This document shows, one piece after another, positions 15,001 to 29,645 of a stretch of DNA of 64,000 nt; the stretch's first letter is position 1, and each line of letters opens with the position of its first letter. The notes beneath the pieces were generated by a model. That model ran no database searches, had not been told where the DNA came from, and saw nothing but the letters and a program-made list of their open reading frames with translations. The translations under genes and the position numbers were made by a program. The stretch is from positions 277,156 to 341,155 of the forward strand of contig JBAYIT010000001.1 in assembly GCA_041665485.1 (NCBI GenBank), given 5' to 3'. Source of the DNA: Candidatus Shapirobacteria bacterium. Lineage in GTDB: Bacteria; Patescibacteriota; Microgenomatia; UBA12405.

Positions 15001-18000
15001 TCCCTAGTGCGAATGGAATGACAACCGACGAGATTTTAAACAAAATTGAAGAAAGATGGCAGAAAAAGATAGATGAGGTTAACTTGAAAGCAAGAAGATT
15101 GGGGCTTGCTCCGATGGGTGAAGGTGATGATTATGACGGATATAATGCAAAAGTTGCAAACTTTGAAAGTAGATTAAATGTTTTGCGTGGTGTTGGGAAA
15201 GAAGCACCAAGGCTTGAATATGCAAGAGTTTTAAATAGCGCTAGATATAGTGATTTCTATTGGCAAGTCAATAGACCCGCTTTGGAGAATGTTGATATGG
15301 CGACGGCTCAAGTTAATAATGGAATCGAGAGAAAAACGATTTGGGACAGCTGGTTGAAAACTGTGGTAGGTAAAGGTTTACGTGTTGTTAATGGAAACGT
15401 GGTTTGGGGAGTGATTGATTTTGGAAAAGAGCCAACAGCAGATGTTGTTGGTGAATTGGAAAGGCGTGCCCAAGAAATCGTGACCAAATATAATGATTCT
15501 GTTGTTGTGCTGGAAAGGTGGAGTGAAAGGGTTGGTCAGAGATTAGATTATGTGGGTGATATGGAAAAATTCTTGGAAGATAAGCAGGAGACATTGAATT
15601 CATGCAGAGAGGCAAACGAGAGGTTGCTTAAGTTTGGTCAAGAATATGGATTAAGGGAAGATGAGTTGACAGCCATAAAATCGATAGCGAGACTTAACCA
15701 AACAACCCAAGATTATTCTAGAAAAGAAGCAGAATTACCTGGACGTTTTTCTGCTTTGAATGTTGGAATAGTTAGAGATCCTAAACAAAGATTAGACGAG
15801 TATGAGAATCAATTAGTCGAGTTGCAGCAAATGGTTGATAATGGTTTGGCACTGTCGGACCAGCTTGATGGAGAAACAAATAGTCAATATTTGTCTAGAA
15901 TGAAGGAAAAAGAGTCTCTGGAGTATGGCAAACTAAAAGAAATTGCGAAACAAAATGGTCTCAATGATGTAGATATAAAACAATTTGGTACATTGGGTAA
16001 ATTAAGAAAAGAGATAGTTAGATTATTAAAAGAAGAGATTAAACTTCTTGGCGGAGACGTTGAGGCTGATGGAATCGAAGATATTGAGCAATTGGTGGTA
16101 TTAAAGGGAACAGTTCAGGAACAAAAAAGAATGGAAAAAGAAAATTTGTTAATTGAAATTATGAAATACTATCCAGATTATAGTAATGGAGGTATATCCG
16201 CTATTAAAAGTGACTTGGCAAAGGCGGTAGCGAGAAGAAATGAGGTAGCCGGGCAGATTATGATAGTTAATCCAAATTTGGCAGATAAAGTAAATGCAAC
16301 TAATAATATTGCTGAGTTGGAAAAGATGTTGGAGGTGGCTAAAGGGGCAAGGGAAGTGGATCAAAAAACAGCCGTGGCGAATAAAAGTGTTGGTGGTCAG
16401 ATTGACCAATATTTTGAAAAAATTAAAGATGATTTAGAGAGAGGTCGATTTGTGGCCAGAACGTTAGGGTGGTCAAATTTTGGTAGATGGGATGATGTTT
16501 ATAATGCCATGGCGGAGGTTGAAGGATTAACTGACTTTAGCCAGGTGACGGACTTGGATCAGTTAGCTAAATTTATTAGAGATCAAGACCGGATCAAGGC
16601 GTTGCAGTTAGAAAAAACACAAGAGGATCAGGTGGTGGAGTATGTGAGAAGGAAATTGGAGGGGAGGGTGAAAGAAGGATTGGAGAGGAGGGCAAAATCG
16701 GCTGGGGTAGAGGGTGAGCTTGGGAAAGTTAAGGTGGCGTTGGCTGGGTTGGTGGGAGTAGACAAGGTTGGGGGTTATGAGGTGTCGGCTGACGGACTGA
16801 CGCAAGCAAAGGCGGATTTGGCCGAAGCTAGCCGGAGCGCGGGAAAGTTGGCTCAAAGAATAATAGAGCTTGACCCGGCCAAATCTTTGGAGGTGACAAG
16901 ATTAAACATTCCGGCTTTGGAAAAGATGCTTAGAGAGATGGAAAGCGAGGCGAGGATTAAGGAGTTGGTTAGGAGAGGAGGTACTGTGGTGGCGGGAAAC
17001 ACACCGGTTTTGGCGGCACTAGAGGCCAAACCTCAAGTCCAAGATATAGCTAAATTGGAGGCGGTAGAGAGATCAGTGACGGCTATGCTTGGGGAATTAG
17101 AGACGGAGGTGGCCGATCCGAGGGTGGCTAAGGTCTTGGGAGATTTAAGGTTGCAGCAACAGAGGGCGGCTAGCTTAAGGGTGATTTTGGAACAAGAGGT
17201 TCTGGTGGCCGAGGGGCAACAATTGGCAGTGGAGGTTGGCGAGGTGAAAGGAAAGGTGGAAGCTCGGCAGGATTTGGCGAGGCAAAAAGGAGTGATTTCT
17301 TCTTTGTTGACCAGAGCTAGAGCATTGCAGGGAAAGTTGGAAAAGATTGTGTCTAGGGAGAGAAAAGTGGCCAGCGCCAGAGAAACAGTTAAGGGTAATA
17401 TTTCTACCCTTGAAAGGTTGGAGACTGAGGCCAACATGGTTGCCTTGTCGGAGAAGCTAGGGAGGGGAAAAGTAGAATTAATAATTCGGGAAAATGGCCA
17501 AGAGTCTGGAAACAGACTCGATGTAAATGTAGCCTACTTGGATGCGATCGCTTCGGACTTAGATGTTTTGATTGGACAACAAAGGCTGGTGATCGCTGAA
17601 CTGGATGGAGTATTGGGTGAGTTAGATTCAGTAGCCACTCTAGGTGATTTGTCGCCAAAGACAATGGCAGTGGTTAAGAAATATATACCAAAGATGGTTG
17701 TTACAGATAAGGTGGCAGAGGTTGTTGGTGAGTTGAGGGACCGGCGTCAGGAGTATCGTGATGTGGTTGGTGAGTTACTGGGTCTTCAGGCGGCATTGAG
17801 AAATAGGACTAAATTTGATGGATTGTCGAATGGTGCTGGTAAAATTGTTAAACGGAGCTTGGCGCGGAGATTTCACCCTGATACTGTTGGTGAGATAGTG
17901 ACGGTTAAGTTGGGCGGGGAGACCTTGTTGGTTGATTTAGAGAGTAGAAGAAATATTCAACCACTGATATCAGAGTTGTTTATAAACCCCAAGATTATAG

Positions 18001-21000
18001 GAAAATTTGAGTTTGGGGGAGCTATTGAGACTCCGAGTGGTTCGGGGGCGAGAAATGGCGGAACAGCCTCTGCTGGCCAAAATATACGGAAGTCGGGACA
18101 GGATGTTGTTGTCAGTTTTTATGACACTAAAGTTAGAATTCGAAGGGACAGGGGCCGTTATTATTTATATAACGATGGCCCCTCTTGGATGAATGTCGAT
18201 GTTGCTGGTCGGAATGAGCTTGTAATTGTGTTTTCGAGTAAAGTTTATGAATTGAAGAATGGGGACTTTTTCTATGATCAGTACGGAGTCGGGTATAGGT
18301 TTGTTGACAATGGTGGCGTGGCGTATTTGTTGGATGCTCAAGGTAACATAGTGTGGGTGTTTGATCAGGATCAGAGTAGGAGGAGTGACGAGGTAAGGAT
18401 TGAAACTAATAACGTGGTTTTTGATTTGCCATCTTTGGGGATTCTTGCCAATATTTTTGTTACTAATACCGATGCTAGTGGAGTAGTGAAAATTTACATA
18501 GACGAGACAACTACAGGCACGATATATGTTAAAAAGGAACAAATAGGGGGATTTAGTGTTAAGCAAAACTATCCCCCGGGAAGTTATCAGTTGGGTGATG
18601 GTGATGAGGTGACAATTGCCGGGGTAGTGTATACGGTTATAAATCAGCCTCAGTTGGGGACAATAATCATGGGTTCAGATGGAAAGCAATATAAGATTAG
18701 GGATCCATGGGGTGGCAAGTCGATGAGAGATAAGGCAAGAGAAGACAGAGAGCCGATTTCTCTTAAGTTCGCCGGTATTTTGGACAAGATGAACAAAATA
18801 GACGCCATATTATTGTCAATGGGGGTGGCTGATTATGAGAGCAAGATGGTTCAGGTAGAAGCAATAGCTGATCGTTTAGAGATTGATATGGCTGACGTGG
18901 AAGCCCAAATTGGCGGATGGTTTCGAAATTATGGAAATTATTTGGGGCCCAATGATGGTATCAGGCAAAGCATGGAGACAATGAGCCGTGATCTGAAACA
19001 GAAGCGTTTAAATTTGGTGGAACGGAAAAAGATGCTAGCCAATATTCAAAAATTTGCAATTAAGTGGAAACTTGGGATAAATCATGGTCTCGCTTATGAG
19101 ACTATGATCGGAAATTTGGGGAAACTGGATACGAAGTTGGCAGAGGAATATCGTCGCGGTCTTACAGATATTAGAACAGATATGGTGGCAAATGGATTTA
19201 TACTGAGAAGTGGGATGCCGGGTAGTGGTGAAACTAAGGCGGAGATTTTGAAATCGGTTGAAAGTGATTTGGTGGCAATTGATAGTTACATTGGAGTGGT
19301 AATGAGAATTAATGAATTAAAGAGCGGAAGGGCTAAGATCGGGGAATGGGAAATCGAGGCTGGGGAGGTTAGGCGATTAGGGCAGATTTTAGTGGCGGAG
19401 AGGACGGCGACTAGACCACTATCATCCTCGATGGTTTTTGACATACGGGAGAAGATGCTAAATGCTTTGAACCAATTAGTTGCTGAAAACGTGGCAAAGG
19501 CAAGGGGTTTAACCACTAAAGATCGCGACCAAATACTTTCATGGGAGGCGAGCCTGAAAAAAAATGTGTCAAATGTGCAAATGATGGAGGTCATAATTCA
19601 AGCGGAGGAGATGCAGGGGAGAGTGGGAGAGAGTAAAGGTTCAATTTCTGGAGTTGTTGGGGGGAATTGGCGTAATAGGTTGACGAAGATAATTGCCGAA
19701 AATTGGCGAAGATTAACTGAAAACTATTCCAACCTTTGGATTGGAAAGATGGTAGCTGATACAACCCAGGTAATTGAGAATGAGAAAAAAGCTGTGTCGT
19801 TTGCTAGCGAGGAGGAGGCAAGAAGGTGGGTTGTCGAGAGAATAGAAAATAGAATGTCTGCCTATTTGGACTCGCCTCCCGGAGGTTTGAGTTGGTTGCA
19901 GGGGCAGATAGAAAGTGGCGAGACATCGGTGCTGGCTAAAAGATTGGCCGGGGTGGTGGTTGCCACTTTGCAGGGGGCGAGGGGTGATTTATCGAAACAG
20001 ATTTTAGGGGCGGTGTCGTATTCATCGAAACCGGTGGATTACTCGCAGTGGTCTCAAGCAGCGAAAACTAATATCTCAATTCAAGTTGAGGAGAACTCTT
20101 TGAGAGTAGCAAGATTTCATCCATATGTGCGTCAAGGTAGAAGTAAAGAGGATAGGGCGGCAACGTTAGTAGATAGCCGGGGTTATGCAATTGGCCAGGT
20201 GATAGCAGATGGGCATTCGCGGGATAAGAAGGCTGGTCAGTTAGTGGAACAAGTAGTGGCCAATGTTCAGTCTAATTTGAAAAGATATGATTGGACGACG
20301 ATGGACAGAAAAGGAGCGGAGAGGATACTGGTGGGAATCTACAGTCAGATATCTTTAAATTTTGCATTTGAAGAGAGGGGTGCGGTACTTCAGGTGGCGG
20401 TAGTGACGACAGATGGTTATGTGGTAATGAATGTAGGTGATCCGACATTACTAACAGTTGATGTCAGAGGCAGGATAGTAGAACACGGAGGTGGAGATTG
20501 GGCCACGGTAGCCGAGGCAATGCAGAAATATGATAAGGCCATTTGGGATCGATGGGTGCCAGATCCTTTTTCTATTGATACCCGAGGTGTGTGGCGGGAC
20601 GATAGGTTGTTGATGGTGGCCAACACGATCGGAGATGATGCTAGCGCGAGGCGGGGTATTCAGATAGTAAGGGAATATTTGGCCAAAAACCAGGGACGAA
20701 TGAATCCTGAATTAAGGAGGATTTTGGATGGGGCAGTGAATTATAGAATGGAATATTTTGGGAAAGACGAAGTGGCAGGGGTGATAATAGGCTCGGATGC
20801 GGTGGTAGATAACTCGAAGAAGACTGGTGGTTTTGAGACAGTGGTGAAGAAAAGTTTGAGCCAGAATAGTGAAGACGTTATTAGTCGGATGGTGGGAATG
20901 ATAAGTCCGGACGTGTTGGGTAAGAGTGTTGATGATTTGTCGGTGGGCTACCTGAAGTGGAGTGAATATTTCGGTGGTGTTGGAAGTGTTGAGGTAACTT

Positions 21001-24000
21001 TGGATACAGCAAAAACGGGACAGATAAAGATAGGTAATGTAGTAGTAGGTGGGGGTCAAGGTAGCCAGACGAGTGGATCCGCGGCGGCGAAAGTAGTTTA
21101 CGAGCCAATAATTATTGGTCGGAACGAAAATGATTTGGATGGGATGTTTAGGTTTAATCAAACAGTGTCGCGCAGACAGGCAAATTTGACATTAGAGGGT
21201 GGCGATTTATTTATTGATGATGCTGGGTCGATGAATGGGACTTGGGTGAATGGTGTCAGAATCACAGGAAGGACAAAGCTATATTCTAGTGATGAAGTGA
21301 AATTTGGCTTAGGTTCACAAGAGGTGGTTTTACGGTTTGGACTGGAGGGGACGACTTGGGTGGCAGTTCAAAAAACCACCGGAAAAAGATATGTGTTTAA
21401 TTTTCAAAAAGCTGGTTTCCAGCCCAATGGTTGTTCTGATTGTTCGGTGGTGCGACAGACGGTGGAGAAATTGGTGGCGAAGGCGAAAGGTTTTTATGAG
21501 GCGGGCAATTCGGCAGAATTTCAAAGATTGATTGATTTGGCTTATGGTTATAACAATAATCACACTTTTGTGAATGAAGTAATTCAACAATATGGCATGG
21601 CGAATATTAGTTACGTGGAGGCAATAATGAAGAGGACAGCGGAAACAGTTAAGTATGCTCAAAAGATGGCGGCGTTGTCTTTGGAAAAAGTGGACGTGGT
21701 TAGGGACGGAGAAGCGCTAACAGGGGGAGCATTAGCAGAATTGGATGGCATAGAAAGTGATGTTAAAGCTAAACAAGGAGAATTGGGAAAAATTGAAGTA
21801 GTCAAACAAAGTGAAGAGGAACAGGCGGCAGAGGTAAAGGCAATTGACGAGAGGCAGAGGGCACTTGACGAAAAGAAAAAAGCAGGAGATGCTAAAACAG
21901 AACAACAAAAGAGTGAAGAAATGAAAGTAGTCGAGGATGAAGTGGCGGTGGTGGAGGAAATGGAACCGAGTGTGAAAGTGGTTGAAGAAAGTGATTTGGG
22001 CATAAAATCATCGGAATCGGTTAAAACAACTAGAGCCAGGATTATTAAAGACGGAAAGGACTTGGGGTGGTACATCGTTAAAGAATTTAGGTCGAGCGAG
22101 GTGGTACAAGACAATTTGGATGATTATCAGCTTTTAAAAGAAAAAGGATTTCCGGTTCCAGCAGAGGTAATGGTAATTCCAGGAAGGCCGAATTCAATAG
22201 CAGTTACCGACTTAACTGAAAACGGAAAATATGAAATTTATTCATATAACAATATTACTGACGGGGCCATTAAACCAAATATTTCTAACTTTGACGAAGT
22301 AAAACGGCAATTTAGAGACATAGCTCAGAGGGCGGATGACAACGGATGGTTGATGACCAATGATTCATATTTTTTAGTTCTTGACCCAATCACATATGTT
22401 GGAAGGGTAGTAGTGGGAGATTTTGGTGGGGCAGTGATGACAAAAGAGGAGGCAGTAAAACAATACGGATATTTGAAAAGCGACACTAGTTTGAAAATGG
22501 TGGAGAACTTTATGTTGCCGACCTTGGCGAGTGTGTTTAATGGAGGGGAAGTGGGAGCAGTGGCGGCGGCGGAATATAAACCTCTTGGTTGTTCGGATTG
22601 TGCGGTGTGTGATGTGACAGTTGATCAGATAATTACTCAGGCTAACGACGAGGCGATTAAGGGCAACGATCAAAAGGCTTTGGAAATATTACGAGGGTTA
22701 ACGGCCTATGCCAATAGTCACGTCTACGACAATAAGGTGGCTCAACGGCTGCAAAACTTGAGGATTGCGGTGGCAGAAGCAATTATCGCCAGAACATCAG
22801 AGACTCAAAGTTATGCTTTAATGCAGGCCAACTTGGCAATTGACGAAATAGAGAGAGTGTTGAAAGAACCAGGGTTGACCACGGGACAGATAATAGGTCT
22901 GGTTCATGAACGGGAGGAAGAAGTGAAACCGGCGATAAAAAAGGTGCGGGCGATTAGAGTGAGTCAATCGAAATTGGGTGAGATGTTTGAGAGTAGATTG
23001 AGAAGGGCGGAAATAAGTGTGGCTGGAGTAGTGGGGACGGAGGTGGAGGCGGTTAGACAGAGGATGGAAGCGGGAACGGAAGAATTGAGTGTTGTTTTAG
23101 AAAAAAAGTTAATGTCAGTGGATAGAGTAATCGAGCCACAAATAGGAGAGCATTTATTGGAGGCTAAAAATCCAAAGATGTTTTTGGCAGTTAAACGGCT
23201 GTTGAATTTTTCCAATCAAAACGAAAGATTTTTGGATGACAACGAAGGGGTGGTGGTTGGTTTGCAAAAAATTATGGACGATTTAACAATAGTGGTGAAC
23301 AAGGAAAGAGTGGCGGGCAAGAAAAAAGCTATGCCGGCGGTTAAAGTTTTTGTTCAAGTGGGGGGAGAGCCAAACGCCTTTAGTTTGCCGGATGGGTCGA
23401 TAGTGGTGACTCAGTCATTAATTAATTTAATGAGAACAGAGGATGAAATTGCGGCGATTTTGGTGCATGAATTTTCTCATTTTGAGGACCACTTTATGGA
23501 CTGGCGGGAAGATATTTTTGATAAGGGGGGGTTGGGCGAAGAGGTGGGTCAACCATTAGTAAGTAGATTGCAGGAGCATAAGGCTGATTACGTGGGAGCG
23601 AGGTTAAAGAAAATTGGTTTTAATGGCATGGCGATGACGTCGGCATTGGAAAACTTGCAAATTTATGTGGCTGATTTCGAAAAAGCCCAAAATGAAACGA
23701 TTCAGAAGGACTGGAGAAGAAAAATATGGAAATTTTTTGGCATAAAGACAGTTGATGAGTGGAAAGCGGGAACTGATGTGGCTCATGGGTCGATTGCTAA
23801 TAGAACGGCCGGCCAGGAGGTAGGTAATAAATTTATTGAGCATGGGGGGGAGGCAGTGGCGCCAAGAGAAGTGCCAAGTGGCTGGAAGGGTAAAGCGGGG
23901 GTGGATGAGATTTATGGCCATTTAGTGGGTGATAATTATGGTCCGGAATGGGAAAAAGCATTGAGGTCGGCGCCAAGCGAGGTGGTGCGGCAATACATGG

Positions 24001-27000
24001 AGAGTTTTACTAAGGAATGGTTGGTGGAAATGGCGAATCAGAAGACTTATTATGATGGCCGATTTACAAGGCGGAAGGATAAAAAAGGAGTAGAGCGGCT
24101 GGTTCAAACAGTATATGATGATCGCCTTTTTGAACAATTTAGTCAGTATCAGTTACAAATGCTGAAGAAGTTTGAGAGTTTGGAGAAATTGATGGCAGAA
24201 AGGATGGAAGTAAGTGGAGAGGATGAAGGAAAGATGATTAGACTGATGACAGTCATCAAACCAGGTCCACAAGGAGGAGAGCTTTATTCGCAATTATTGC
24301 ATCAACTGAAGGGGGAAATGATGCCGGGTAAGGCGCAGGAGGAGGGAAAAAAGCTTTTGGCTAGAATTGGAGTGGAAAATGGCCAAATGTCGCAGGAATA
24401 TGTGGCGAGGATAATTGATCAAAAATTTTGGGGAGAGAGATTGGCTAGAGTGGGATTAAGTGGGGCAGTTAACTTCCGTCCGGGGCCAATTATCAATAAG
24501 ATTTTTGATGAAAATCTTTGGAATGAAGCCAATGATATAACGGCATTAACTAGAATTTTGGATTGGGTGTTGGTTTTACCTATGTCTGATTATTACCCGA
24601 GCGTATCGATGGAGAAAAAGGTTTTAGGAATGATGTTAACTTTGGCGTTAAAAGGACCAACGCAGGGAGAGTTAGTGTTTAATGAAGAGGTGGCCAAGAG
24701 GCTGGTGGAGGCGGGCTTACGGGTGTTGGAAGCCAATCCAAAATTAAAACAAAGTGAGTTGTATTACGATATTTTGGGTGACAATTATAATTTCAGAGGA
24801 GCACCTTTTTTGGTAAAGTTGGCTTATAAGAAGTATTTAGTGGCGGGATGGGGAATAGTTGACCTGTTTACAGCAGAAGAAGATTTTTATATTGCGGTTT
24901 TGAATCAAGATGAAGTGGCCTTGCAAAAAGTTTTAGTGGAACATCCGGATGCATCTTTGAATTACATAATGGCGGCGGCAGGCAACGGGGTTGGTGAGGA
25001 AAGACAGAAATGGTTGATGGCCGAAGTTAAAAAGTTTTTAGAAGGGCCGCAGTTTGATGGGGCGGATTGGAACGTGATGCATCCGGAAGAATCTAAGTTT
25101 ATGTTTAACTATCAGGCATCGATGGTTTTAGTTGAGGGCTATGAAGAAAGGCTTCGAGTGGCGGATTTAGTTCAGAATAAATATGTTGAGGTGATGATAA
25201 GGATGGATGATTCGAAATTGGGTAATTTGGTTTTTAAAATTTTTGAAATTCAGAGTATGTATGGGATTAATAAGGAGAAGTATCAGGAAAATGTCGAGAA
25301 AGTTTTTGGCTTACCGGTTTTTGATTTAGTGCAAAAAAGGATATTGGCCGAGAGTGGAAAGACAGGATATTGGGGTCAGCCAAAATACTTATATCGGAGA
25401 GCGGTAGCATTTTTGGAGGGTACCAGACAGATGTATGGGGGTGGGGTAGATTCTACCACTGTGGCAAACTATCCATTTTTTGGGGAGAATGCTTATGAAG
25501 CTAAGTTTTTGCAGCCATTTATTGAGCTGATGCTCAAGCAAGTAACAGACACTTACCCGGCTGATTTCCCCAAGACGACGACCACGGCTTTGAAGTATTA
25601 CCAAATAATTAAGGACTTACCGAAGAGTGATGAAAGAAAAGCGTTGCTTGACAGGGCGGTAGAGATGATGGTTCAACAAATGCCATTTGATGATTTGCTA
25701 AAGTTTGTTCAGGCAGAAATAGCCGATGGCAATGCTGAAATTGGAATTAAGTTTTTGGAGAATCGGGTGCAGACAAATTTAGAGTATCAAAAAGTTAAAG
25801 AAGCTTTTGGGAGTGATTTTACCAAAATGTTAACTGGCGGGGCGGTGGCGAAAGGGTCGGTGGGAGTGCTTTTGGATACGTTGATGAGTAATGTTCTTAC
25901 CGGCGAACAGACTTTTGAATTTTTTGAAGCGGCGCTAACCGGAGATGATGCCAAACTGAGATATTTTATGGGTAAGGCGTTTAGTGAATATCTTGGGTAC
26001 AACCAAGATGGAATAATGGTGCACGAGGATGGTTCAATTACGGGGACAGGGGTGGGAAATTTACCTATTTTTGAGGACTTGATGGCGGAGCTTTACAGTA
26101 TGTCGAAGATGCAAAAGACGGCTTTAATTTACAAAATTTTAGCTGATGATAGCTCTGGGATATTAAAACATGAAGAATTACATCCGAGAATTGCCTCTAT
26201 GATGCTTTCTAGGGTTGAAGGTGAGCCCGGGATGAAAACGTTTATGAATAAGGCCATTTTGGCGGTGTTGAAACAGAGAAGGGGGAGGACAAAAGTGGCT
26301 TTGGGGGTGTCGAGTAGTTTGGCAGACATCTTTTTAATGAAGCCGAAGCAAGTGGCAAGTAATGACTATGCAGTGAAGAGAATTATCGAAGGGAATTCTA
26401 ATTACAACGTTCTAAAAGATACTACCGGATGGTTGGAAGAGCAGAAAAAATATTTTTTGAGGGTATTGGGAACAAAAAAAGATGATGTAATGAAAGATCC
26501 GAGGAATAACGATCCGGTGGTGGTGGAATTGAGAAATGAGGTGGCAGAGATGTACAAAACAATGTATCAACGGATGGGGGTGGTTGAGAACAGTGGCCAA
26601 CAAACTTTGGGCTTTGAAGAGCAAAAAGTGCCAGCGACTAAATTTGTAGTTGAGATCGGCAAAGCCTTAGGAGCGTTGGGAGTAAGATTTTTGCAGGTAA
26701 TGGGCCAATACTATGAAATTACCCCGGAGATGCGAAACGACTTTCAAGCGGTGTATGACAGTGCGTCAAGTTTGTTTATGGCTAATGCTTTCCAGACGAC
26801 GGAAATGGGGATAGCGGCACTTAAAGCGGAAGCAGATAAATTAGAAGCTGATGGAACCAATCCTCAAAGAGTAGTGTGGTTGCGAGGGGAGGTGGCGGCA
26901 ATGGAAGAAAGGCAAAGGACAATGTTGGTAGTGAGAAAAATTGGCGGCGGGTCAATTAATACTGCCTATGAGGTAACTAAAATTGGGGGCGGGGAGCGCG

Positions 27001-29645
27001 AGGTTTATAAAATCTTAAATCCAAATACGCAGGAGGAATTAATGGCAGACACGGAATTGGTACAGAACGTGTTGGCGGAATTGATCCGTTCGGATCGAGG
27101 TAGGAGGCAAGACTATGAGGTGGCGGGTAAGTTAGTTTCAACCCTGGCTAATTGGATTGCCGAAGATGTGGCCGATGCTAATTATTTAACTTACGACCCG
27201 TATTTTACTCAAGCTTATGAGAGTTATTGGGGGCCGGAAGGAACAAGGATGCGTGTGTCGGAAACCAGGAGCCCTTATAATAAATGGACCAAGGCAGAAG
27301 GCTTTGTTGAGGGCGATACTTTAAAAGCGGCGATCAACGGAGTGGTTGGAAATGATCCACGGAGGCTTAAAGACACAACCAGCGATGAGGGACAAAATTT
27401 AATTAAAGTGATGAGTGATACAGTGAGCGATTATGTTCGACATATGTTTATACCGGTCAAGTTGGCTGACGGCAGGGAAGTTTATTTGTTGCATTCGGAC
27501 ATTCACATAGGGAATATCATGTTATCCACCCAAGGCGAGGGTTATGTAATTGATAGGAGTTATTATCTGGTGTTGGAGAAAAAGGATGTGGATATGATTG
27601 ATCAACTTTTAGCTGGTGACATCTCGGAGACGAAGAAGCTGGATATTTTAATTAATTATTTGTTAGATGAAAATAAGGTTACAGGTTTTAATCGGAATGT
27701 TCTTTACGGTAAGATGTTTTTAGCGGCGGCAAAACATCGAGCCAATACCGATGCGGCGGTGAATGCCTTGATGCAGGAAGTAGGGAGGAATGATTTGGAA
27801 GTGCCACTACGATTGAGGTTGTTTATGAAAAATATGAGTTCGGCAAACCGAATGTTGGAGTATATTGGCAATGAAACTTTGGGTGATTATGTACGAAGGT
27901 ATCATGAAGCAGAAAAGTTTCAGCAAGAATATTTTGATGAAGTAAGAAAATTGTTGACAGATGCTGGCCAGGATCCGGATGGAGTAGTGGGTAAACTATT
28001 GACTGGTGATTTTGAGGGTGGTTTTAGAATGTTGGAGGAGGTAACCTCAGCCTATGAGCCTCAAGGTTGTACTGATTGTTCGGTGTTTGTTCATGAAGTT
28101 AAAAAGAAAATTGCAGAGATAAACGGATTAACCGAACAGCCAGCTAGGTTAGCAAAACTACAAGAATTAAGGGATTATGTGTTTAATCACAAATTTGAAT
28201 CGAATCGGGTGGTGGAGGCTGGCGCCGAAGCGGTGGTAGAAATCGAAGAAGTGGTGGTGATTAAGACAGAGGAAGAAAAAGATGATGCTTTAAGAGCAAT
28301 TGATTTGGCGATTCAAAGAATTGATGAAGCCCTAGAGGAGAGTGGGTTGAGTGTAGGGGCAAGGGAGGCGTTGGGGGGTTATAGAGGGGAGATGGAGAAG
28401 AAAATGTTAGAAGTAATCTTTGTGATGTATGATGATTTTCTAGACGACAAAAGACAGTTATTTATTGGCGATAAGTCGGGATATTCTTTTTACGGATTAG
28501 TTGGTGATGAGGAAAAAGAATGGCTTGAAGAAGGGTTTTTGCCGATGCAGTTTAATTATGAGGATATTACTCTTTTAAATCAATTTGGTCGAAAGGTTTA
28601 TGTGTTGCCTCCTGGTTTGAGCGTGGAAAAACGAGCTGAGGTTGTGGGTGAAATAATTAACGGTGGAGATCCGGAGATATTATTACGTAAATTTGGTGAG
28701 GCACATTTGCGAAGTGATAGGGGGACAGATTTGTATTTTAATAAAGATCAATCTCCACTATTATTTGTCTATGAGCCGGTTGGAGAAGGGCCGCAGGGTG
28801 AAAAGATGGCGGGGGATTTATTGGCGGTTCTATACTCCGATACACCTTATCCTTCAATTGGAAATTATGTTCAAGAGCTTGTTGGTGAGCATAGACCAAG
28901 CGCGATGGTGTTGGAGACGTACACGATACCTAAAGATAAAGCTGAAGTATTAGGAAAAAAGATTAATCCAAATCGTCATGTATTGATGCCAAAGGGTAGT
29001 TTTATGACGCAAAAGGCTTTTGAGGAGGAATATTTTTGGGTGAATAGAGATGGCCAACTTGGTTTGTGGTCAGGACACTTACCTTCGGAGATTACTAAGA
29101 GAGTTGAAATGGCTAGAGTGGCGGTAGCTAACGGAGGCATTGAATTTCAAGAGTGGAAACAGGAATTGGGTAAAAATGAACTTATAACTTCAACTGATTT
29201 ACTGGCCAAATCAGGAACGGTGGCTCGTGGGATAGGTGCGGAGTATGCCCTGGCGACGGTTAGCTTAGGATTAAGAGCGGGTAGTAACGGAATTTTTTAT
29301 TACGGTCCATTTGCTTCAAGTGGTGGCTATTCCGACCCAGGTCTATTTGTAAATATTAATAGTGGTGTTTCGTTTGTGGTTGGGAGAGATATCGGTGATG
29401 CACGTAGAAAAATTCAGACTGACGAGGCAGGAGATAAGCAATATATTGCACTTGAGGATGTTCCTGCAGTTTTGGTGGGTAATGAAAAAATAAGATTAGG
29501 TTTACTTGATGGGATAAAGGCGTTGGAAGATGGCAGGGTGGTGAGGCCAGGAACATATGATTTTTGGAAAGACAGGATAAGGTTAATAACTGATATTAGA
29601 GTTAGAGAAGATATTGATGGTCTTTTTGGGGAGAGGGGTAGATAA
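1..29645 (+). CDS. Giant multidomain protein (>=9,863 aa; 5' end probably outside window). Contains long coiled-coil regions, calcineurin-like metallophosphatase, 2 FHA domains, PP2C-like phosphatase, protein-kinase-like domain, M48 metalloprotease, 3x CxxC-helix modules
   Basis: Single stop-free frame of 29.6 kb (track start TTG at 54; same frame has no stop back to nt 3: ...ATPDQREIDSYGRRLGELGAIKE...). Recognisable domain motifs are distributed along the whole length (see domain features). Stop TAA at 29643-29645, 15 nt before ruvA. Confidence 0.85.
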   Translation, partial: ATPDQREIDSYGRRLGELGAIKEARLDLSALTEDQRIAIDWVQRDVEHRTSIDEDGVRISRQAQSELVAIGLADDAVAKELVTAGGKTMAGAIILRIKTEVFGIDTGIYLAKEGAEPNIQRNLNRMTRFGDKVVILDSQKLSDPAYFKSLMEAKYVVVSNNELSFTRDHVMDVENPMSKQANSVWKKLTRRAAGYADEAQITLDINTQGIISKGESRIYSDTDIKVLATKKVAQVLSEEKILVKGDQKAHEGRLVTSVTHEGETLKISRFDKTTEEAIMTNLAKQNEVSPDFFKKVRQKKTELDLILKNGGGEVELKSVLGEGFDGVENLSQRVGGVLEELSMVRTFAQAMETEYTRTVDTKIQAQGTATGDRYAREVSVPTGGGKANFGQTYQGDMNLAMEAVGAIRAGGTPEFNGLKGSENKAFKSSAADWVADLQLDPESSIVAVTGTLGGNRGVVETVLGLRVHANGESTIKIVGEVDTPTGRLVNEDNSMAAKDNIDRNQLIEDAVTTGKFDTSRGKDSKGNLKVAMTNKNEDPLEVAVAIDKGRRQKGLEETTYFVQQGGSDYFEIKLGGDGTVVSRVLVTDKQIQARYSNGEGNLVTVIGRGGATGDSILTPDSTPFLLITAKGDPTYTVAQAGARGNRGSGDMDTLAIVVGEGSGRAGGNTSAERLEVAKQALDFPAWKKEIDLAEKTLNKDNITTGLNNGVAADSARMMFDALSNSSDAEVKAWASKQTLEKFNKAETGRDLTDSDGFTTNLEKRNQIAVEESRRWKAIMDDPDNQTILAKVKAELPNIYENMRINAQEAVDYPGGGYSYASGKEGTKDAVLVARNLREAREMHNRNITADLENKYAVVGKADSSTVADSTIKPGDGGGALSAAEIGSARVWGVVDPAIPVASLDPVVVRVAVVAKQAEAEKERANAERLRIAGSTNAPTRQETLDRLKEAIKIAEAENAEWERLSEIPAYGDDGKAIWEHSEYKRRVEAKIVAVNKEAAKLGVATVDPVTGKQRPIKDINDEIALKKGTGSVGIGEDETKKQNDRAKEFGTVRRSGEENKELEIRLDGIKREYDALKSLGIERVADTSGKLPAYGVFMSGAIKELDKQMESYGLRYNSSDGIEKNVEDLKVAKAEKRDEVIRLAETAGVEGVDWSTLTTTEIKRMTVDKIAGNEADIVRQKAEAEAEARIATIVGQIRAIKTDYVRPDELDENGANADLAKVKEERSELVDQINGIDGGQKKADLEKMTIGDLEARLADRQEKLTSLKAEYKRLAGEETGVGEIQKLTGQIGSLVATRTGLETTAKIKGITATVTDALSNPAIQEMINDDNNAEAEFRNTRSGEGFMWRDRNNGELEGDYEFEWNKEKEAKRRELRAEIARVAGGEVAGLENLTVKELEVRLKQEELVATSRANLVQLQATWSGLVPEAARYGREHGISPDQTENSYRTAITGLRNWIAEAERTRQTTLGKIRDLDGVVAVANTNTTNLGVLDEVLTTVKKNNTDLIALDNEIKKYLGADYKTDRSQGLVKALEVAEAKLAEVKRQWNDLWTQIDEIRGVRTSDKVRLGQKNLTTLGRVKELANTRALRASEAEQQRQVEEVTRNETRRVALVVEVRNIWGDVSLEPDGLEKMTIVQVGLEKAKANQALVQARQEATKNGATPTELAGAKNIKAMRDLVAKKVEEATILADEQRRQAEEVARQAKAEADRKAEEARVVEEQRLAKIAADKQLVDRVMAEVNGIVVTTGSNQDETKEALQAAVNRLVGIDTITAKGANDLINQKKALIKKVEEYYEGQDVNDALVTGVARVLGVAQVNNWNTKLGALQNYVDEQMFSNPTFWPDVGEEVVVQKIGEKLKELLGTSDQVMATEIKNRWNTKLVAERSRREEIRRENELFAHKQQYFSGEKAIPNLTDKEKESIMDAVDRNAVDTIVARLRVEKELKKAIGEVVSRTGVNGDLKGHLTEADVRKAENIEALNQMVAKAEVAKGLAVAERVAGGEWAGERGKWLNITKGRNELDIDYIKKVEKAERRVVVEQANKILAGLNSEMARELERYVVERKSILEKMTAEGVTVAIGEHLAQYAQRWYYRDTPGSIYQTVIKNMRDTPGELGNVYALSVERVVGSQQQAMIDNQLARLKTTVGKGVAAKRVALGDVHSDVEQLARILRGEVNVGADFKPVLDKSNNWIGGKTVIRLTGDLIDKLPPGMTGIQVLQTIRNWQKQARDAGGDIIITLGNHDIHTIAMANGVLEEPMITSGVDIHLILELRKPEYGDLLNWFTQLPLITKSEESGNIYIHSDTVAYLEYGDTIEEIDQNIRSILTTGRGLPGKIAPTSYLRTDPATKERSWVRGVSPIEALMHNLTGRRGEFKDPNNVTRFLTILDGKGIIHGHNPGVSYDDPRVINVDAGMSLGMYKPGDDPGLQRGRAIVSTILPGGELKIDIERRFAQVKISDKDLPDVADLWLIKPTLRPEKNIILGRNEGVDLPVNDSRVSSKHARLSRDLAGFWWIEDNSSTNGVAVWEGKYWRELKNIDPVARNTGLRDRSRLVDGSIISLNRDTNLSLWFRVKVDGNGEISLEPYSSQPQQPGLGVEAPAKTSQQDGDVAKSNLLQVMAQNAGIEVGSVVEKMNNMANEARSGGFKNLPSNLNNQSNIIEIVNMNAALVVYFKADYRSRAGVDLTKPVVVGATANCFDWQKAYVMAISEIGKPASQPSVAPSAAPSVAPAPIIVPPAGDTGVVLGVDSKGREVRIKTVNGKEEVVVENLIIKHNSIGTVLGNGTKYEKSVAGEPGDVVAVNGKGENQIRVSFSKDGKVVQVKVGGIVVEKKEANEAITVADLVVREVTLNTAADQSGVKKAVTRAKAELDKIDPKIASEVESKLGPIRTRIVEIENHVARVEGYYAGKSNIVVAEQVARVLGVVGMDKGDDVYAVVDGLWGGIEMVRIEDVSTDTSIIANIRGEIMSRRLGISDSQIVELAKFIAGNWTTQVAAERVRRADLTKAKTEYWRAESAKSNLAAAALYELGGGSYAVNLTSRYQTLDQFKIAVEEQLRIANYLVDGYKTANPEITDEDIESAFTGFGTSGSTAFAFKSVMNGVDERAKARVAEARVKALPIEGFLTVEEVTAKKTVKEIDDLVEEKGRERDSYIAKQKEELRQVAPLTQDEEKAIDGASGKTAIDRELVKIKQAIATRVLIEDQKKNPLVKVGNGYKNNSGRSIKYHTTDNQKTWTWVAGQVIPEETLKNKIVEVDDDRVIWVNGQGVVTTYTIALTNADYKPLQAKFLDKKGNVIKDKDGKVDLDSSKVEGVESYEVKGSDGTITVFHVANAKFPQGVKSKRELVANMAWVVSRTREVIGNQAKDVSNEVLLVPQEATSFGGMAPGVKSEDVNSVMVVVYDLVKTQSVLAHELGHEHFGSSPVTDISEGVAINVSMEAIGGGVDQERMDGILDQPFDVKGEGEGIITSTGLATLDKATEKDRWLYTYKSGTFLIRSLIEVVGDRSKAWEMVGRLMEAGRKKFYWSEGLVVTRISGGATVDYATAIDELLVDVGFNAEQRTAVYEKQSTYLYLGNKAQIKYEESEVTKKIGTKPGNGGYVIRGMFLAKEHVEMVRTRRGGLLLISNKSKMGTRVFREGQWQEVRVGGDPTELREGDVVKLGSIGSSVYFKVVDLYGRLDLKEIEAYGVKGKEKNKEERVLGEDPVVTEYRRKLWDNYRYEDPHEWRLGILRTAMNTRISDVTRMRARAAKYGVENDISWAGRTTEEMRADLEAKVGPMVVALNARAKAVGLVDIKDEETVEDFVKNISEIERYIGLYKLLNKGSADGLNFGVEGFQQLSTRLKAKIWELARQRGVASNKFVTFSIATAKEMLNRIDVLNARAEKVGLAPKSSDVSEIGYFYDLERTESLIKLLKFMGKTDIGVGKLMESGELYERLIGLLEERAKELGLTDLGDVSDENKVSMVRDRLNAGWVEKAQKEGLTVTVATGDWPVDMERKYESAKEQFLIAEYGGLAVARPRGDDTFLVWESWLRKAKSDNNRKIEMAVLEGLNVGGLTSTMTESELVAKISELRRRAKEEYLGRITDRVRLVGVAGTSWIILEKDTQSLEQFKKDVDSAGDLAVSLVEQAKEEVPEMKQTDIDAEFATSKTGTVNGRLVEAKLVATRRLNLAKQPVVVRTMTGGDLEGFLTTTEIEAKKTVKEINDLVAEKGRERDNYKVKQKDGLDSGGKAVIDKAKGKTAIDKAVADINQERVNLEARAKVVGMTVTKQQSGEQLGRLIKALEEANSMMVDANNLAEAKKLLAKLNAEPAYKGSPVIAELEGKIGVVALRSALPNGQRPEDLTVKNKLLPEYQVALEEMYQGVPDGFKKQAKLAAYYFQSLDTGEKLVTAQGYDLTPYRDRFLEAFSHTGFANVVQPGSKMYDVAPAEAYPIWLQEKQVAIREERRVASEGWDYSKVETFVNQYLRNYGKLDSSSGQDYYFFDSSRGAKEVEKPLTYNNKMYIENGQLMDLDKLGEFFDQLKILGIHPNEMKSFEDGSSLVLYWSGGLLDSEVKMIQDVLAKVGLKARGPAQDPIRLVVGKDGKLGMTVFGSNDASLGDAGRNPFIWSDKYNEGEFFKQWLRLTYYGQKNPADPYRMSFIRAEVDKAKLADAELEKKLREVDTAGLPIVISSNFGPSSSEYLFGTSFGNSQGKIIYKAESNVDLAEAQQAQEQSKKQQQAVGGFFGVAESTFRSLGDDFGRWNVANQAVGWYNMAKVVEVYNAMAEAEGITDFSQVVDADDSLREFLRQKLLVKNLSLEDGQMNGLVEYLEEKLKGGVEEEIRGRKTERRLPAGVNLLFVQDDVDLGVNEDENIVYLISGESVKTVDLSQIPDLFYFDETQQNHVPKEATIDQDGWELRGMSPYDVEIKKGAVKIFVKFGRRMQYDKIMWLRMYVSDGLVFEWVKLGDNPQLTGYLLEGQYLSGDSRGDDLAYIEQLRRLRNLAIRVLGSDVSGDGLRRFYVVETLLPSANGMTTDEILNKIEERWQKKIDEVNLKARRLGLAPMGEGDDYDGYNAKVANFESRLNVLRGVGKEAPRLEYARVLNSARYSDFYWQVNRPALENVDMATAQVNNGIERKTIWDSWLKTVVGKGLRVVNGNVVWGVIDFGKEPTADVVGELERRAQEIVTKYNDSVVVLERWSERVGQRLDYVGDMEKFLEDKQETLNSCREANERLLKFGQEYGLREDELTAIKSIARLNQTTQDYSRKEAELPGRFSALNVGIVRDPKQRLDEYENQLVELQQMVDNGLALSDQLDGETNSQYLSRMKEKESLEYGKLKEIAKQNGLNDVDIKQFGTLGKLRKEIVRLLKEEIKLLGGDVEADGIEDIEQLVVLKGTVQEQKRMEKENLLIEIMKYYPDYSNGGISAIKSDLAKAVARRNEVAGQIMIVNPNLADKVNATNNIAELEKMLEVAKGAREVDQKTAVANKSVGGQIDQYFEKIKDDLERGRFVARTLGWSNFGRWDDVYNAMAEVEGLTDFSQVTDLDQLAKFIRDQDRIKALQLEKTQEDQVVEYVRRKLEGRVKEGLERRAKSAGVEGELGKVKVALAGLVGVDKVGGYEVSADGLTQAKADLAEASRSAGKLAQRIIELDPAKSLEVTRLNIPALEKMLREMESEARIKELVRRGGTVVAGNTPVLAALEAKPQVQDIAKLEAVERSVTAMLGELETEVADPRVAKVLGDLRLQQQRAASLRVILEQEVLVAEGQQLAVEVGEVKGKVEARQDLARQKGVISSLLTRARALQGKLEKIVSRERKVASARETVKGNISTLERLETEANMVALSEKLGRGKVELIIRENGQESGNRLDVNVAYLDAIASDLDVLIGQQRLVIAELDGVLGELDSVATLGDLSPKTMAVVKKYIPKMVVTDKVAEVVGELRDRRQEYRDVVGELLGLQAALRNRTKFDGLSNGAGKIVKRSLARRFHPDTVGEIVTVKLGGETLLVDLESRRNIQPLISELFINPKIIGKFEFGGAIETPSGSGARNGGTASAGQNIRKSGQDVVVSFYDTKVRIRRDRGRYYLYNDGPSWMNVDVAGRNELVIVFSSKVYELKNGDFFYDQYGVGYRFVDNGGVAYLLDAQGNIVWVFDQDQSRRSDEVRIETNNVVFDLPSLGILANIFVTNTDASGVVKIYIDETTTGTIYVKKEQIGGFSVKQNYPPGSYQLGDGDEVTIAGVVYTVINQPQLGTIIMGSDGKQYKIRDPWGGKSMRDKAREDREPISLKFAGILDKMNKIDAILLSMGVADYESKMVQVEAIADRLEIDMADVEAQIGGWFRNYGNYLGPNDGIRQSMETMSRDLKQKRLNLVERKKMLANIQKFAIKWKLGINHGLAYETMIGNLGKLDTKLAEEYRRGLTDIRTDMVANGFILRSGMPGSGETKAEILKSVESDLVAIDSYIGVVMRINELKSGRAKIGEWEIEAGEVRRLGQILVAERTATRPLSSSMVFDIREKMLNALNQLVAENVAKARGLTTKDRDQILSWEASLKKNVSNVQMMEVIIQAEEMQGRVGESKGSISGVVGGNWRNRLTKIIAENWRRLTENYSNLWIGKMVADTTQVIENEKKAVSFASEEEARRWVVERIENRMSAYLDSPPGGLSWLQGQIESGETSVLAKRLAGVVVATLQGARGDLSKQILGAVSYSSKPVDYSQWSQAAKTNISIQVEENSLRVARFHPYVRQGRSKEDRAATLVDSRGYAIGQVIADGHSRDKKAGQLVEQVVANVQSNLKRYDWTTMDRKGAERILVGIYSQISLNFAFEERGAVLQVAVVTTDGYVVMNVGDPTLLTVDVRGRIVEHGGGDWATVAEAMQKYDKAIWDRWVPDPFSIDTRGVWRDDRLLMVANTIGDDASARRGIQIVREYLAKNQGRMNPELRRILDGAVNYRMEYFGKDEVAGVIIGSDAVVDNSKKTGGFETVVKKSLSQNSEDVISRMVGMISPDVLGKSVDDLSVGYLKWSEYFGGVGSVEVTLDTAKTGQIKIGNVVVGGGQGSQTSGSAAAKVVYEPIIIGRNENDLDGMFRFNQTVSRRQANLTLEGGDLFIDDAGSMNGTWVNGVRITGRTKLYSSDEVKFGLGSQEVVLRFGLEGTTWVAVQKTTGKRYVFNFQKAGFQPNGCSDCSVVRQTVEKLVAKAKGFYEAGNSAEFQRLIDLAYGYNNNHTFVNEVIQQYGMANISYVEAIMKRTAETVKYAQKMAALSLEKVDVVRDGEALTGGALAELDGIESDVKAKQGELGKIEVVKQSEEEQAAEVKAIDERQRALDEKKKAGDAKTEQQKSEEMKVVEDEVAVVEEMEPSVKVVEESDLGIKSSESVKTTRARIIKDGKDLGWYIVKEFRSSEVVQDNLDDYQLLKEKGFPVPAEVMVIPGRPNSIAVTDLTENGKYEIYSYNNITDGAIKPNISNFDEVKRQFRDIAQRADDNGWLMTNDSYFLVLDPITYVGRVVVGDFGGAVMTKEEAVKQYGYLKSDTSLKMVENFMLPTLASVFNGGEVGAVAAAEYKPLGCSDCAVCDVTVDQIITQANDEAIKGNDQKALEILRGLTAYANSHVYDNKVAQRLQNLRIAVAEAIIARTSETQSYALMQANLAIDEIERVLKEPGLTTGQIIGLVHEREEEVKPAIKKVRAIRVSQSKLGEMFESRLRRAEISVAGVVGTEVEAVRQRMEAGTEELSVVLEKKLMSVDRVIEPQIGEHLLEAKNPKMFLAVKRLLNFSNQNERFLDDNEGVVVGLQKIMDDLTIVVNKERVAGKKKAMPAVKVFVQVGGEPNAFSLPDGSIVVTQSLINLMRTEDEIAAILVHEFSHFEDHFMDWREDIFDKGGLGEEVGQPLVSRLQEHKADYVGARLKKIGFNGMAMTSALENLQIYVADFEKAQNETIQKDWRRKIWKFFGIKTVDEWKAGTDVAHGSIANRTAGQEVGNKFIEHGGEAVAPREVPSGWKGKAGVDEIYGHLVGDNYGPEWEKALRSAPSEVVRQYMESFTKEWLVEMANQKTYYDGRFTRRKDKKGVERLVQTVYDDRLFEQFSQYQLQMLKKFESLEKLMAERMEVSGEDEGKMIRLMTVIKPGPQGGELYSQLLHQLKGEMMPGKAQEEGKKLLARIGVENGQMSQEYVARIIDQKFWGERLARVGLSGAVNFRPGPIINKIFDENLWNEANDITALTRILDWVLVLPMSDYYPSVSMEKKVLGMMLTLALKGPTQGELVFNEEVAKRLVEAGLRVLEANPKLKQSELYYDILGDNYNFRGAPFLVKLAYKKYLVAGWGIVDLFTAEEDFYIAVLNQDEVALQKVLVEHPDASLNYIMAAAGNGVGEERQKWLMAEVKKFLEGPQFDGADWNVMHPEESKFMFNYQASMVLVEGYEERLRVADLVQNKYVEVMIRMDDSKLGNLVFKIFEIQSMYGINKEKYQENVEKVFGLPVFDLVQKRILAESGKTGYWGQPKYLYRRAVAFLEGTRQMYGGGVDSTTVANYPFFGENAYEAKFLQPFIELMLKQVTDTYPADFPKTTTTALKYYQIIKDLPKSDERKALLDRAVEMMVQQMPFDDLLKFVQAEIADGNAEIGIKFLENRVQTNLEYQKVKEAFGSDFTKMLTGGAVAKGSVGVLLDTLMSNVLTGEQTFEFFEAALTGDDAKLRYFMGKAFSEYLGYNQDGIMVHEDGSITGTGVGNLPIFEDLMAELYSMSKMQKTALIYKILADDSSGILKHEELHPRIASMMLSRVEGEPGMKTFMNKAILAVLKQRRGRTKVALGVSSSLADIFLMKPKQVASNDYAVKRIIEGNSNYNVLKDTTGWLEEQKKYFLRVLGTKKDDVMKDPRNNDPVVVELRNEVAEMYKTMYQRMGVVENSGQQTLGFEEQKVPATKFVVEIGKALGALGVRFLQVMGQYYEITPEMRNDFQAVYDSASSLFMANAFQTTEMGIAALKAEADKLEADGTNPQRVVWLRGEVAAMEERQRTMLVVRKIGGGSINTAYEVTKIGGGEREVYKILNPNTQEELMADTELVQNVLAELIRSDRGRRQDYEVAGKLVSTLANWIAEDVADANYLTYDPYFTQAYESYWGPEGTRMRVSETRSPYNKWTKAEGFVEGDTLKAAINGVVGNDPRRLKDTTSDEGQNLIKVMSDTVSDYVRHMFIPVKLADGREVYLLHSDIHIGNIMLSTQGEGYVIDRSYYLVLEKKDVDMIDQLLAGDISETKKLDILINYLLDENKVTGFNRNVLYGKMFLAAAKHRANTDAAVNALMQEVGRNDLEVPLRLRLFMKNMSSANRMLEYIGNETLGDYVRRYHEAEKFQQEYFDEVRKLLTDAGQDPDGVVGKLLTGDFEGGFRMLEEVTSAYEPQGCTDCSVFVHEVKKKIAEINGLTEQPARLAKLQELRDYVFNHKFESNRVVEAGAEAVVEIEEVVVIKTEEEKDDALRAIDLAIQRIDEALEESGLSVGAREALGGYRGEMEKKMLEVIFVMYDDFLDDKRQLFIGDKSGYSFYGLVGDEEKEWLEEGFLPMQFNYEDITLLNQFGRKVYVLPPGLSVEKRAEVVGEIINGGDPEILLRKFGEAHLRSDRGTDLYFNKDQSPLLFVYEPVGEGPQGEKMAGDLLAVLYSDTPYPSIGNYVQELVGEHRPSAMVLETYTIPKDKAEVLGKKINPNRHVLMPKGSFMTQKAFEEEYFWVNRDGQLGLWSGHLPSEITKRVEMARVAVANGGIEFQEWKQELGKNELITSTDLLAKSGTVARGIGAEYALATVSLGLRAGSNGIFYYGPFASSGGYSDPGLFVNINSGVSFVVGRDIGDARRKIQTDEAGDKQYIALEDVPAVLVGNEKIRLGLLDGIKALEDGRVVRPGTYDFWKDRIRLITDIRVREDIDGLFGERGR
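6440..7250 (+). other. Domain in giant ORF: calcineurin-like/PPP-family metallophosphatase
   Basis: Ordered motifs RVALGDVHSD (GDxHG-like, nt ~6465), IRLTGDLIDK (GDxxDRG-like), IIITLGNHD (GNHE-like, nt ~6710), later IIHGHNPG...NVDAGMS (GH motif). Confidence 0.65.
7390..7715 (+). other. Domain in giant ORF: FHA (forkhead-associated, phosphothreonine-binding) domain 1
   Basis: NIILGRNEGVDLPVNDSRVSSKHARLSRD...WIEDNSSTNGVAVWEG...RLVDGSIISL...LSLWFRV matches FHA signature (GR...SR.HA...D..S.NGT...L.dGD.i.lG...f.f). Confidence 0.75.
10195..10245 (+). other. HExxH zinc-metallopeptidase-like motif in giant ORF
   Basis: VLAHELGHEHFGSS; motif only, family not assignable. Confidence 0.3.
20100..20835 (+). 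other. Domain in giant ORF: PP2C/PPM-like Ser/Thr phosphatase
   Basis: GQVIADGHSRD (cf. xADGMGGH), VVMNVGDPTLLTVDVRG (cf. NVGDSRaylxrdG), RDDRLLMVANTIGDDAS (cf. GDRYLLCSDGLSDxVS) in the order expected for PPM phosphatases such as PstP. Confidence 0.55.
21100..21345 (+). other. Domain in giant ORF: FHA domain 2
   Basis: PIIIGRNENDLDGMFRFNQTVSRRQANLTLEGGDLFIDDAGSMNGTWVNGVRITGRTKLYSSDEVKFGLGSQEVVLRF. Confidence 0.8.
21420..21600 (+). repeat. CxxC-helix module copy 1 (protein-level repeat in giant ORF)
   Basis: PNGCSDCSVVRQTVEKLVAKAKGFYEAGNSAEFQRLIDLAYGYNNNHTF. Confidence 0.5.
22030..22580 (+). other. Domain in giant ORF: degenerate kinase-like region with DFG-like motif
   Basis: ...DNGWLMTNDSYFLVLDPITYVGRVVVGDFGGAV... 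followed by the CxxC module; lacks clear glycine loop/catalytic HxD, possibly pseudokinase. Confidence 0.3.
22580..22780 (+). repeat. CxxC-helix module copy 2
   Basis: PLGCSDCAVCDVTVDQIITQANDEAIKGNDQKALEILRGLTAYANSHVY, preceded by GDFGG. Confidence 0.5.
23330..23690 (+). other. Domain in giant ORF: M48-family (Ste24/HtpX/BepA-like) zinc metalloprotease
   Basis: GEPNAFSLPDGSIVVTQSLINLMRTEDEIAAILVHEFSHFEDH (M48 HExxH signature) followed ~35 aa later by SRLQEHKADYVGARLKKIGFNGMAM (cf. SRxxExEADxxGxxLxxKAGYDPxxM with third-ligand Glu). Confidence 0.7.
26925..27600 (+). other. Domain in giant ORF: protein-kinase-like (PKL; ABC1/APH-like) domain
   Basis: Glycine-rich loop VVRKIGGGSINTAYEV, conserved lysine REVYKILNP, catalytic loop LLHSDIHIGNIML (cf. 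HADPHPGNILV of ABC1/APH kinases), Mg-binding YVIDRSY (DFG-equivalent). Confidence 0.6.
28055..28200 (+). repeat. CxxC-helix module copy 3
   Basis: PQGCTDCSVFVHEVKKKIAEINGLTEQPARLAKLQELRDYVFNHKF, preceded by GDFEGG at the end of the kinase-like domain. Confidence 0.5.

Follow-up and report, generated by a model that had tools for sequence, protein, structure and literature searches.

The window analysed here is a stretch of 64,000 nucleotides (nt) from a Candidatus Shapirobacteria bacterium (contig JBAYIT010000001.1, positions 277,156 to 341,155 of the forward strand). A single reading frame on the plus strand fills its first 29,645 nt and encodes a giant protein in which three copies of a cysteine-containing module, referred to below as the Cys module, are embedded. 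The frame is open to base 3 at the 5' edge of the window, a TTG start was called at nt 54, and the residues of the giant protein are counted from that codon. At least 9863 amino acids (aa) of the protein are encoded within the window; on the source contig (ENA ERZ27249449 k141_1025756, 411 kb) it reaches 11,461 aa, and ruvA and then ruvB lie downstream of its gene. The three CxxC motifs on which the original prediction was built are real, correctly positioned and in one common frame. The open reading frame (ORF) and the module copies are the following.

1..29645, plus strand: giant ORF, encoding a multi-enzyme protein that hosts the three modules.
21396..21830 (aa 7115-7259), plus strand: module copy 1, with the motif PNGCSDCSVV at aa 7124 (nt 21423), cysteines 7127 and 7130 (nt 21432-21443) and histidine 7170 (nt 21561-21563).
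22557..22988 (aa 7502-7645), plus strand: module copy 2, with the motif PLGCSDCAVC at aa 7510 (nt 22581), cysteines 7513, 7516 and 7519 arranged as CxxCxxC (nt 22590-22610) and histidine 7556 (nt 22719-22721).
28035..28466 (aa 9328-9471), plus strand: module copy 3, with the motif PQGCTDCSVF at aa 9336 (nt 28059), cysteines 9339 and 9342 (nt 28068-28079) and histidine 9379 (nt 28188-28190).

Cysteine is scarce in the giant protein, accounting for 0.09% of its residues as compared with 0.93% in twenty neighbouring genes, a 10-fold depletion. Seven of the nine cysteine residues in the 9863-aa in-window protein fall in the three motifs. Three CxxC pairs were obtained in none of 200,000 random placements of nine cysteines, and the clustering of cysteine in the motifs is thus far beyond chance. 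The Tyr/Asn/His patches described together with the motifs are present as well (YGYNNNH, YANSH and YVFNH), 37-40 residues past the second cysteine. The three copies are homologous over 125-145 aa, with pairwise BLAST E-values of 2e-18, 9e-14 and 2e-12 and 28% identity; a conserved unit therefore exists as proposed, but it measures about 130-145 aa and not about 55 aa. When a profile of the three copies was run over the in-window protein, no further copy was found.

Neither the three copies nor a 16-member alignment gave a consistent match to Pfam, NCBIfam, PHROG or the sequences of the PDB, in agreement with the earlier view that the family is undescribed. The profile search for homologs suggested at that time was carried out with HMMER, exhaustively over 1.84 billion cluster representatives, and returned 14 matches. 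One of these, P0007, is a repeat protein and was rejected as spurious. Most of the true matches are large to giant, with lengths of 1784-6855 aa; the few short ORFs among them (78-606 aa) may represent fragments. Two matches carry a name, one as a "protein kinase" of Candidatus Shapirobacteria (MFA7301742.1) and the other as a hypothetical protein of Patescibacteria. A word-indexed protein search with the 3-copy and 16-copy alignments found nothing although the collection holds homologs, which reflects a limit of the tool and not absence, and when the 3-copy alignment was used for degenerate-pattern scans, no confirmed relatives came from genome, metagenome or viral contigs. Published work on giant bacterial genes concerns Omnitrophota and does not mention the Cys module (10.1101/2023.11.21.568195). 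The module is a very rare, lineage-restricted and unannotated domain family that combines a familiar fold type with a distinctive Cys/His cap.

Conservation was tallied over 18 copies, three from the window, two each from P0002 and P0003, one from L003 and one from each of the other homologs. The second cysteine is kept in all 18 copies and the first in 17, being displaced to Cx6C in P0001. A Ser or Thr after the first cysteine and the conserved Asn are each found in 17/18 copies, and the conserved His in 16/18, with Tyr in its place in P0003a and P0006. The Cys and His positions singled out by the original prediction are consequently retained among homologs, and no known zinc-ribbon family was matched in Pfam or NCBIfam. 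The homologs, too, contain few cysteines: P0004 has three in 2584 aa, L003 has four in 2628 aa, two of them within the module, and in P0009 and P0013 the module pair are the only ones (two each). Extra cysteines lie beside the site in copy 2 (CxxCxxC) and in P0002b and P0003b (HGMQNQC). Several proteins carry two or three copies (the giant protein, P0002 and P0003), and most homologs have a single one.

A structural model of the module was generated with AlphaFold2 from the 16-sequence alignment. The model comprises five helices (residues 14-35, 39-55, 61-79, 82-105 and 110-131) with a predicted local distance difference test score (pLDDT) of 89 and a predicted template modelling score (pTM) of 0.82; pLDDT drops to 52 over residues 1-10. 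The paired cysteines (model residues 13 and 16) lie on either side of the N-cap Ser/Thr of helix 1, the conserved His-56 lies directly past helix 2, and the conserved Asn-60 caps helix 3, which places the Cys pair, His and Asn at one pole of the helical bundle in the model. Conserved stripes run in heptad phase along helix 1 (C16-V23-A30) and helix 2 (A42-H56), from which Cys-16 and His-56 are predicted to face the same hairpin interface. In the model the fold is all-helical and generically TPR/14-3-3-like, with the stacked antiparallel helix-turn-helix hairpins that define TPR (Pfam CL0020). The module helices, on the other hand, are 17-24 residues long and exceed canonical TPR helices, and the Cys-x-x-Cys N-cap and the His/Asn loop are foreign to TPR. 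TPR profiles gave only single sub-threshold matches among the 16 members (TPR_6, TPR_19, TPR_2 and TPR_7).

The regions that precede the modules in the giant protein were assigned as follows.

21108..21308 (aa 7019-7085), plus strand: second FHA domain (Pfam PF00498, E 2e-12), upstream neighbour of copy 1.
22026..22538 (aa 7325-7495), plus strand: minimal protein-kinase-like domain upstream of copy 2, with Lys in YIVKEF (7340), TNDSYF (7435) and GDFGG (7455).
26925..27653 (about aa 8958-9200), plus strand: second kinase-like region, upstream of copy 3, with the G-loop GGGSINTAY (8964), VYK (8984), HSDIHIGN (9147) and VIDRS (9165).
28005..28022 (aa 9318-9323), plus strand: GDFEGG, a turn of the F-x-G-G type that precedes the Cys pair of copy 3 by 18 aa.

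Copy 1 follows the FHA domain directly, and copy 3 is preceded by an ABC1/APH-like kinase region plus a helical tail of ~130 aa. The assignment of this second kinase-like region is based on sub-threshold Pfam matches only (ABC1, APH and fructosamine kinase, in the catalytic loop) and on weak CK2 G-loop alignments. In the homologs the module follows HExxH zincin-like domains (P0003a, P0005 and L003), a metallophosphatase (P0004), a transglutaminase-like Cys/His/Asp region (P0008) or a kinase-like region (P0014).

We consider it about an even chance (a probability of roughly 0.5) that the Cys module is a helical adaptor domain in its own right, capped by a Cys2-His site for a metal, probably zinc. 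Each motif would cap the N-terminus of such an all-alpha domain, with ~130 residues and five helices. Cys, Cys and His, together with a variable fourth ligand or water, would bind a metal, most likely Zn2+, and once bound the metal would hold the incoming linker against the first helical hairpin. The module would be a shuffled accessory unit placed right after catalytic or phospho-signalling domains in the giant, Cys-poor, soluble multi-enzyme proteins of Candidatus Shapirobacteria and other Patescibacteria, where its most likely role would be that of a rigid adaptor, or of a scaffold that binds peptides, in between the enzyme units. Metal binding is suggested by the strict retention of both cysteines in proteins otherwise purged of this residue, and by the retention of His in a protein with a histidine content of only 0.66%. 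It is further suggested by a geometry in which a helix N-terminus lies beside the end of a neighbouring helix, by the tolerance of the first cysteine to a change of spacing (P0001), and by the additional cysteines that adjoin the site in some copies.

Several observations weigh against this interpretation. Only three candidate ligands are conserved, and one of them, His, is exchanged for Tyr in two copies (P0003a and P0006). The AlphaFold2 model is metal-free and is built on 16 sequences only, and the proximity of Cys and His in it is deduced from heptad phase. Its fold matches are generic to helical repeats and fall short of significance (best Foldseek E-value 0.048, template modelling score about 0.6), and no TPR family was matched by the three window copies at E<=10. 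The adaptor role and any binding partner are putative.

The module was compared with known families of metal-binding, redox and related motifs. Zinc ribbons and knuckles carry two CxxC knuckles on beta-hairpins; the module has one Cys pair, no conserved upstream Cys or His, and is predicted to be all-helical. The CxxCH signature of c-type haem attachment does not occur, as the second cysteine is followed by S, L, A or N and never by H in the 16 copies tabulated. Mycobacterial PknG joins a rubredoxin-like CxxCG domain to a kinase and TPR and works with an FHA partner, and E. coli LapB/YciM joins TPR to a rubredoxin-like zinc domain. Both resemble the module in pairing a Cys-ligated metal site, predicted in the module, with helices of TPR type in a regulatory or signalling context, and the giant protein, like PknG with its FHA partner, brings together kinase, FHA and phosphatase domains. 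However, their metal site is a separate four-Cys rubredoxin fold, whereas the module has a single CxxC plus His within a helical domain, and no sequence similarity to PknG or LapB/YciM was found apart from a lone weak LapB match of one member (E 0.011). ZAS anti-sigma (HxxxCxxC) and TAZ (HCCC) domains are all-alpha and bind structural zinc through Cys and His at helix ends, the ZAS site being redox-sensitive. The module is likewise predicted to be all-alpha with helix-end Cys and His, but order and spacing differ (CxxC-x36-39-H), and neither ZAS nor TAZ appeared as a sequence match or top structural match to it.

Four further candidates were rejected. The Erv/ALR-type sulfhydryl oxidases, helical bundles with CxxC and an H-N-x-V-N-like motif, differ in spacing and carry CxxC on another helix; their flavin-binding aromatics are missing from the module, and they are absent from its top structural matches. 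A deaminase PCxxC/HxE motif has the wrong order and fold, a lipobox was discarded with the motif being internal, and an intein or Hint element with the fold being helical.

The strongest competitor, although an unlikely one, is a redox switch. Redox-active dithiols sit as CxxC at a helix N-terminus in thioredoxin-, DsbA- and Erv-type proteins, and the CxxC of the module, at a helix N-cap with its Ser/Thr cap, has this geometry. Its two thiols, their pKa tuned by His, would form a disulfide reversibly; the switch would report oxidising conditions and change the conformation or the activity of the neighbouring enzyme domain. The purging of other cysteines from the host proteins is what would be expected if stray thiols interfere, and the exchange of His for Tyr in two copies also fits. 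On the other hand, the model contains no beta strands and no thioredoxin-like Pfam match was found, so that a thioredoxin fold is lacking, as is a flavin or other cofactor-binding signature. The Cx6C spacing of P0001 is unusual for a redox CxxC, and the conserved His and the extra nearby cysteines suit metal ligation better. Moreover, the 9863 aa in the window contain no signal or transmembrane segment, which makes a cytoplasmic, reduced location probable.

Less probable still is a metal site shared between modules, in which an incomplete Cys2-His site is completed by a second module or another protein, so that the chain folds back on itself or oligomerises, in analogy to a zinc hook or zinc clasp. 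Each module offers only three conserved ligands, two or three copies occur in the giant protein, P0002 and P0003, and the motif lies at an exposed pole after a flexible linker, the low-pLDDT segment at the start of the model. Most homologs, however, have a single copy, and the number in the in-window giant protein is odd. In the Rad50-type zinc hook the CxxC sits at the apex of an antiparallel coiled coil and the zinc is shared by two chains; in the module the CxxC precedes the first helix and is not at a hairpin apex. Comparably doubtful is a broader proposal that the module is no passive scaffold but a device for regulation or processing, a metal- or redox-gated Cys-His switch controlling activity, docking or release of the preceding enzyme domain, in a giant, Cys-purged polyvalent effector deployed by the episymbiont against its host cell.

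In a further proposal the module is a catalytic or self-processing element: a Cys-His-Asn triad, its Cys placed like that of papain at the start of a helix, would cut the polyprotein beside each enzyme domain or act on a substrate. The conserved residues do occur in that order at one pole, and the position of the module is in every case a boundary that follows an enzyme domain. This explanation is nevertheless very improbable: the fold is all-alpha and TPR-like with no peptidase fold among the structural matches, both cysteines are conserved where a triad requires just one, and the conservation of Asn and Ser/Thr is explained structurally by their N-cap positions on helices 3 and 1.

The original prediction had placed the module in the APE or activation segment of kinase-like domains, about 25 aa after a DFG-like GDF(E)GG motif in copies 2 and 3. 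Both motifs are present, but at different distances, GDFGG preceding the motif of copy 2 by 55 aa and GDFEGG that of copy 3 by 18 aa, and only GDFGG (aa 7455) is a genuine DFG-position motif. GDFEGG lies ~150 aa past the DFG-equivalent Asp of the second kinase-like region (VIDRS, aa 9165), and local alignment pairs it with FNGGE (aa 7495) of copy 2 and not with GDFGG. None of the homolog copies has GDF(E)GG upstream of it. The domain with GDFGG, a minimal kinase fold of HopBF1/RIO-like type, is self-contained and autonomous from the module. It is free-standing in P0018-P0021 (208-236 aa, 37-53% identical), which end where the module would begin, and forms the extreme C-terminus of P0001 (45% identical, GDLGSA for GDFGGA) with no module after it; in the giant protein, two more helices close it before the module starts. 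It differs from the HopBF1 and RIO minimal kinases in being only 14-15% identical to those structures and in having TNDSYF in place of the HxDxxxxN catalytic loop, and no Pfam family matched it. The notion of a small Cys2-His zinc knuckle inserted in a kinase fold, favoured by the genuine GDFGG motif and by the kinase-like regions upstream of two of the three copies and of the P0014 module, is effectively refuted: the module is not situated in the segment from the DFG motif to the C-lobe helices, the kinase-like domain needs no module to be complete, the motif caps the N-terminus of a domain of ~130 aa with five helices, and attachment is not specific to kinases, with FHA, HExxH zincin, metallophosphatase and transglutaminase-like domains also preceding it.

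Two side observations concern the kinases. A Ser/Thr-rich leader, SSSESxxTTRA, precedes the minimal kinase (window 21975-22040, aa 7308-7330), and its S, E and TT are invariant in all homologs; it could be a phospho-acceptor or FHA-binding site. In P0001, a canonical Hanks-type Ser/Thr kinase (HGDMKPSN ... IDFG, aa 3900-4150) lies between the module and the C-terminal minimal kinase, and the giant proteins therefore stack several kinase types.

The giant protein contains Metallophos, two FHA, PP2C, M48-like peptidase and two kinase-like domains. Those outside the neighbourhood of the modules, together with a zincin motif, are listed here.

About aa 2135-2375, plus strand: Metallophos domain (domain search).
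aa 2460-2504, plus strand: first FHA domain (domain search).
aa 3388, plus strand: HELGHE zincin motif (motif).
About aa 6693-6808, plus strand: PP2C domain (domain search).
aa 7805, plus strand: M48-like peptidase with HEFSH motif (domain search and motif).

No transmembrane-like hydrophobic segment was found across the in-window 9863 aa, and the protein is consistent with a soluble scaffold in which phospho-signalling and peptidase units are spaced by helical spacers. There are three internal repeat families in all, one of them being the Cys module. Repeat pairs were recorded between aa 3009-3169 and 4070-4226 and between aa 4680-4796 and 5426-5541, both ~40% identical with E-values of 1e-18 to 1e-20. 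The C-terminal ~390 aa after copy 3 (window 28467-29642) gave no Pfam match at E<=1. Over the whole window (1-64000), the GC skew, (G-C)/(G+C), is ~+0.4 in most 2-kb bins (range 0.17-0.50), the purine bias of the coding strand is unusually strong, and 21 of the 29 ORFs of at least 150 aa downstream of the giant gene are on the plus strand.

The RuvB encoded in the window is 72-87% identical to RuvB of Candidatus Shapirobacteria metagenome-assembled genomes, which assigns the window to this lineage. Among 31 Shapirobacteria-like ruvB loci, the module was found upstream of ruvB in L003 only. This locus belongs to a close relative, with a RuvB identity of 87%; the large ORF in the corresponding place upstream of ruvA (L003 1-7884, at least 2628 aa) is another one, orthologous to P0005 but not to the giant gene of the window. 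The Cys module is the sole part shared with the latter, and the large gene at the locus therefore differs between two relatives. At two other loci, free-standing homologs of the GDFGG kinase, 46-50% identical to window 22026-22538, lie inside the ruvC-ruvA-ruvB cluster of related Patescibacteria (L083 8001-8711 and L084 8001-8687) and adjoin a free-standing metallophosphatase gene; no module is present at either. The giant gene of the window, which carries both of these domain types, is located directly upstream of ruvA, an arrangement that hints at local gene fusion or capture at the ruv locus.

Hardly any characterisation exists of the giant multi-enzyme proteins of Patescibacteria, and the Cys module provides a recurrent, recognisable building block and a marker of domain boundaries in them. 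Its three or four conserved residues, in a protein that is Cys-free elsewhere, also offer an experimental handle. Even without a metal or redox role, the module represents a new, very rare domain family fit for a Pfam-type entry. If the doubtful gating of a preceding enzyme domain were true, the Cys-His element would be a new class of inter-domain switch. Should the site bind zinc or respond to the redox state, it would reveal by what means chains of this size are kept stable or regulated.

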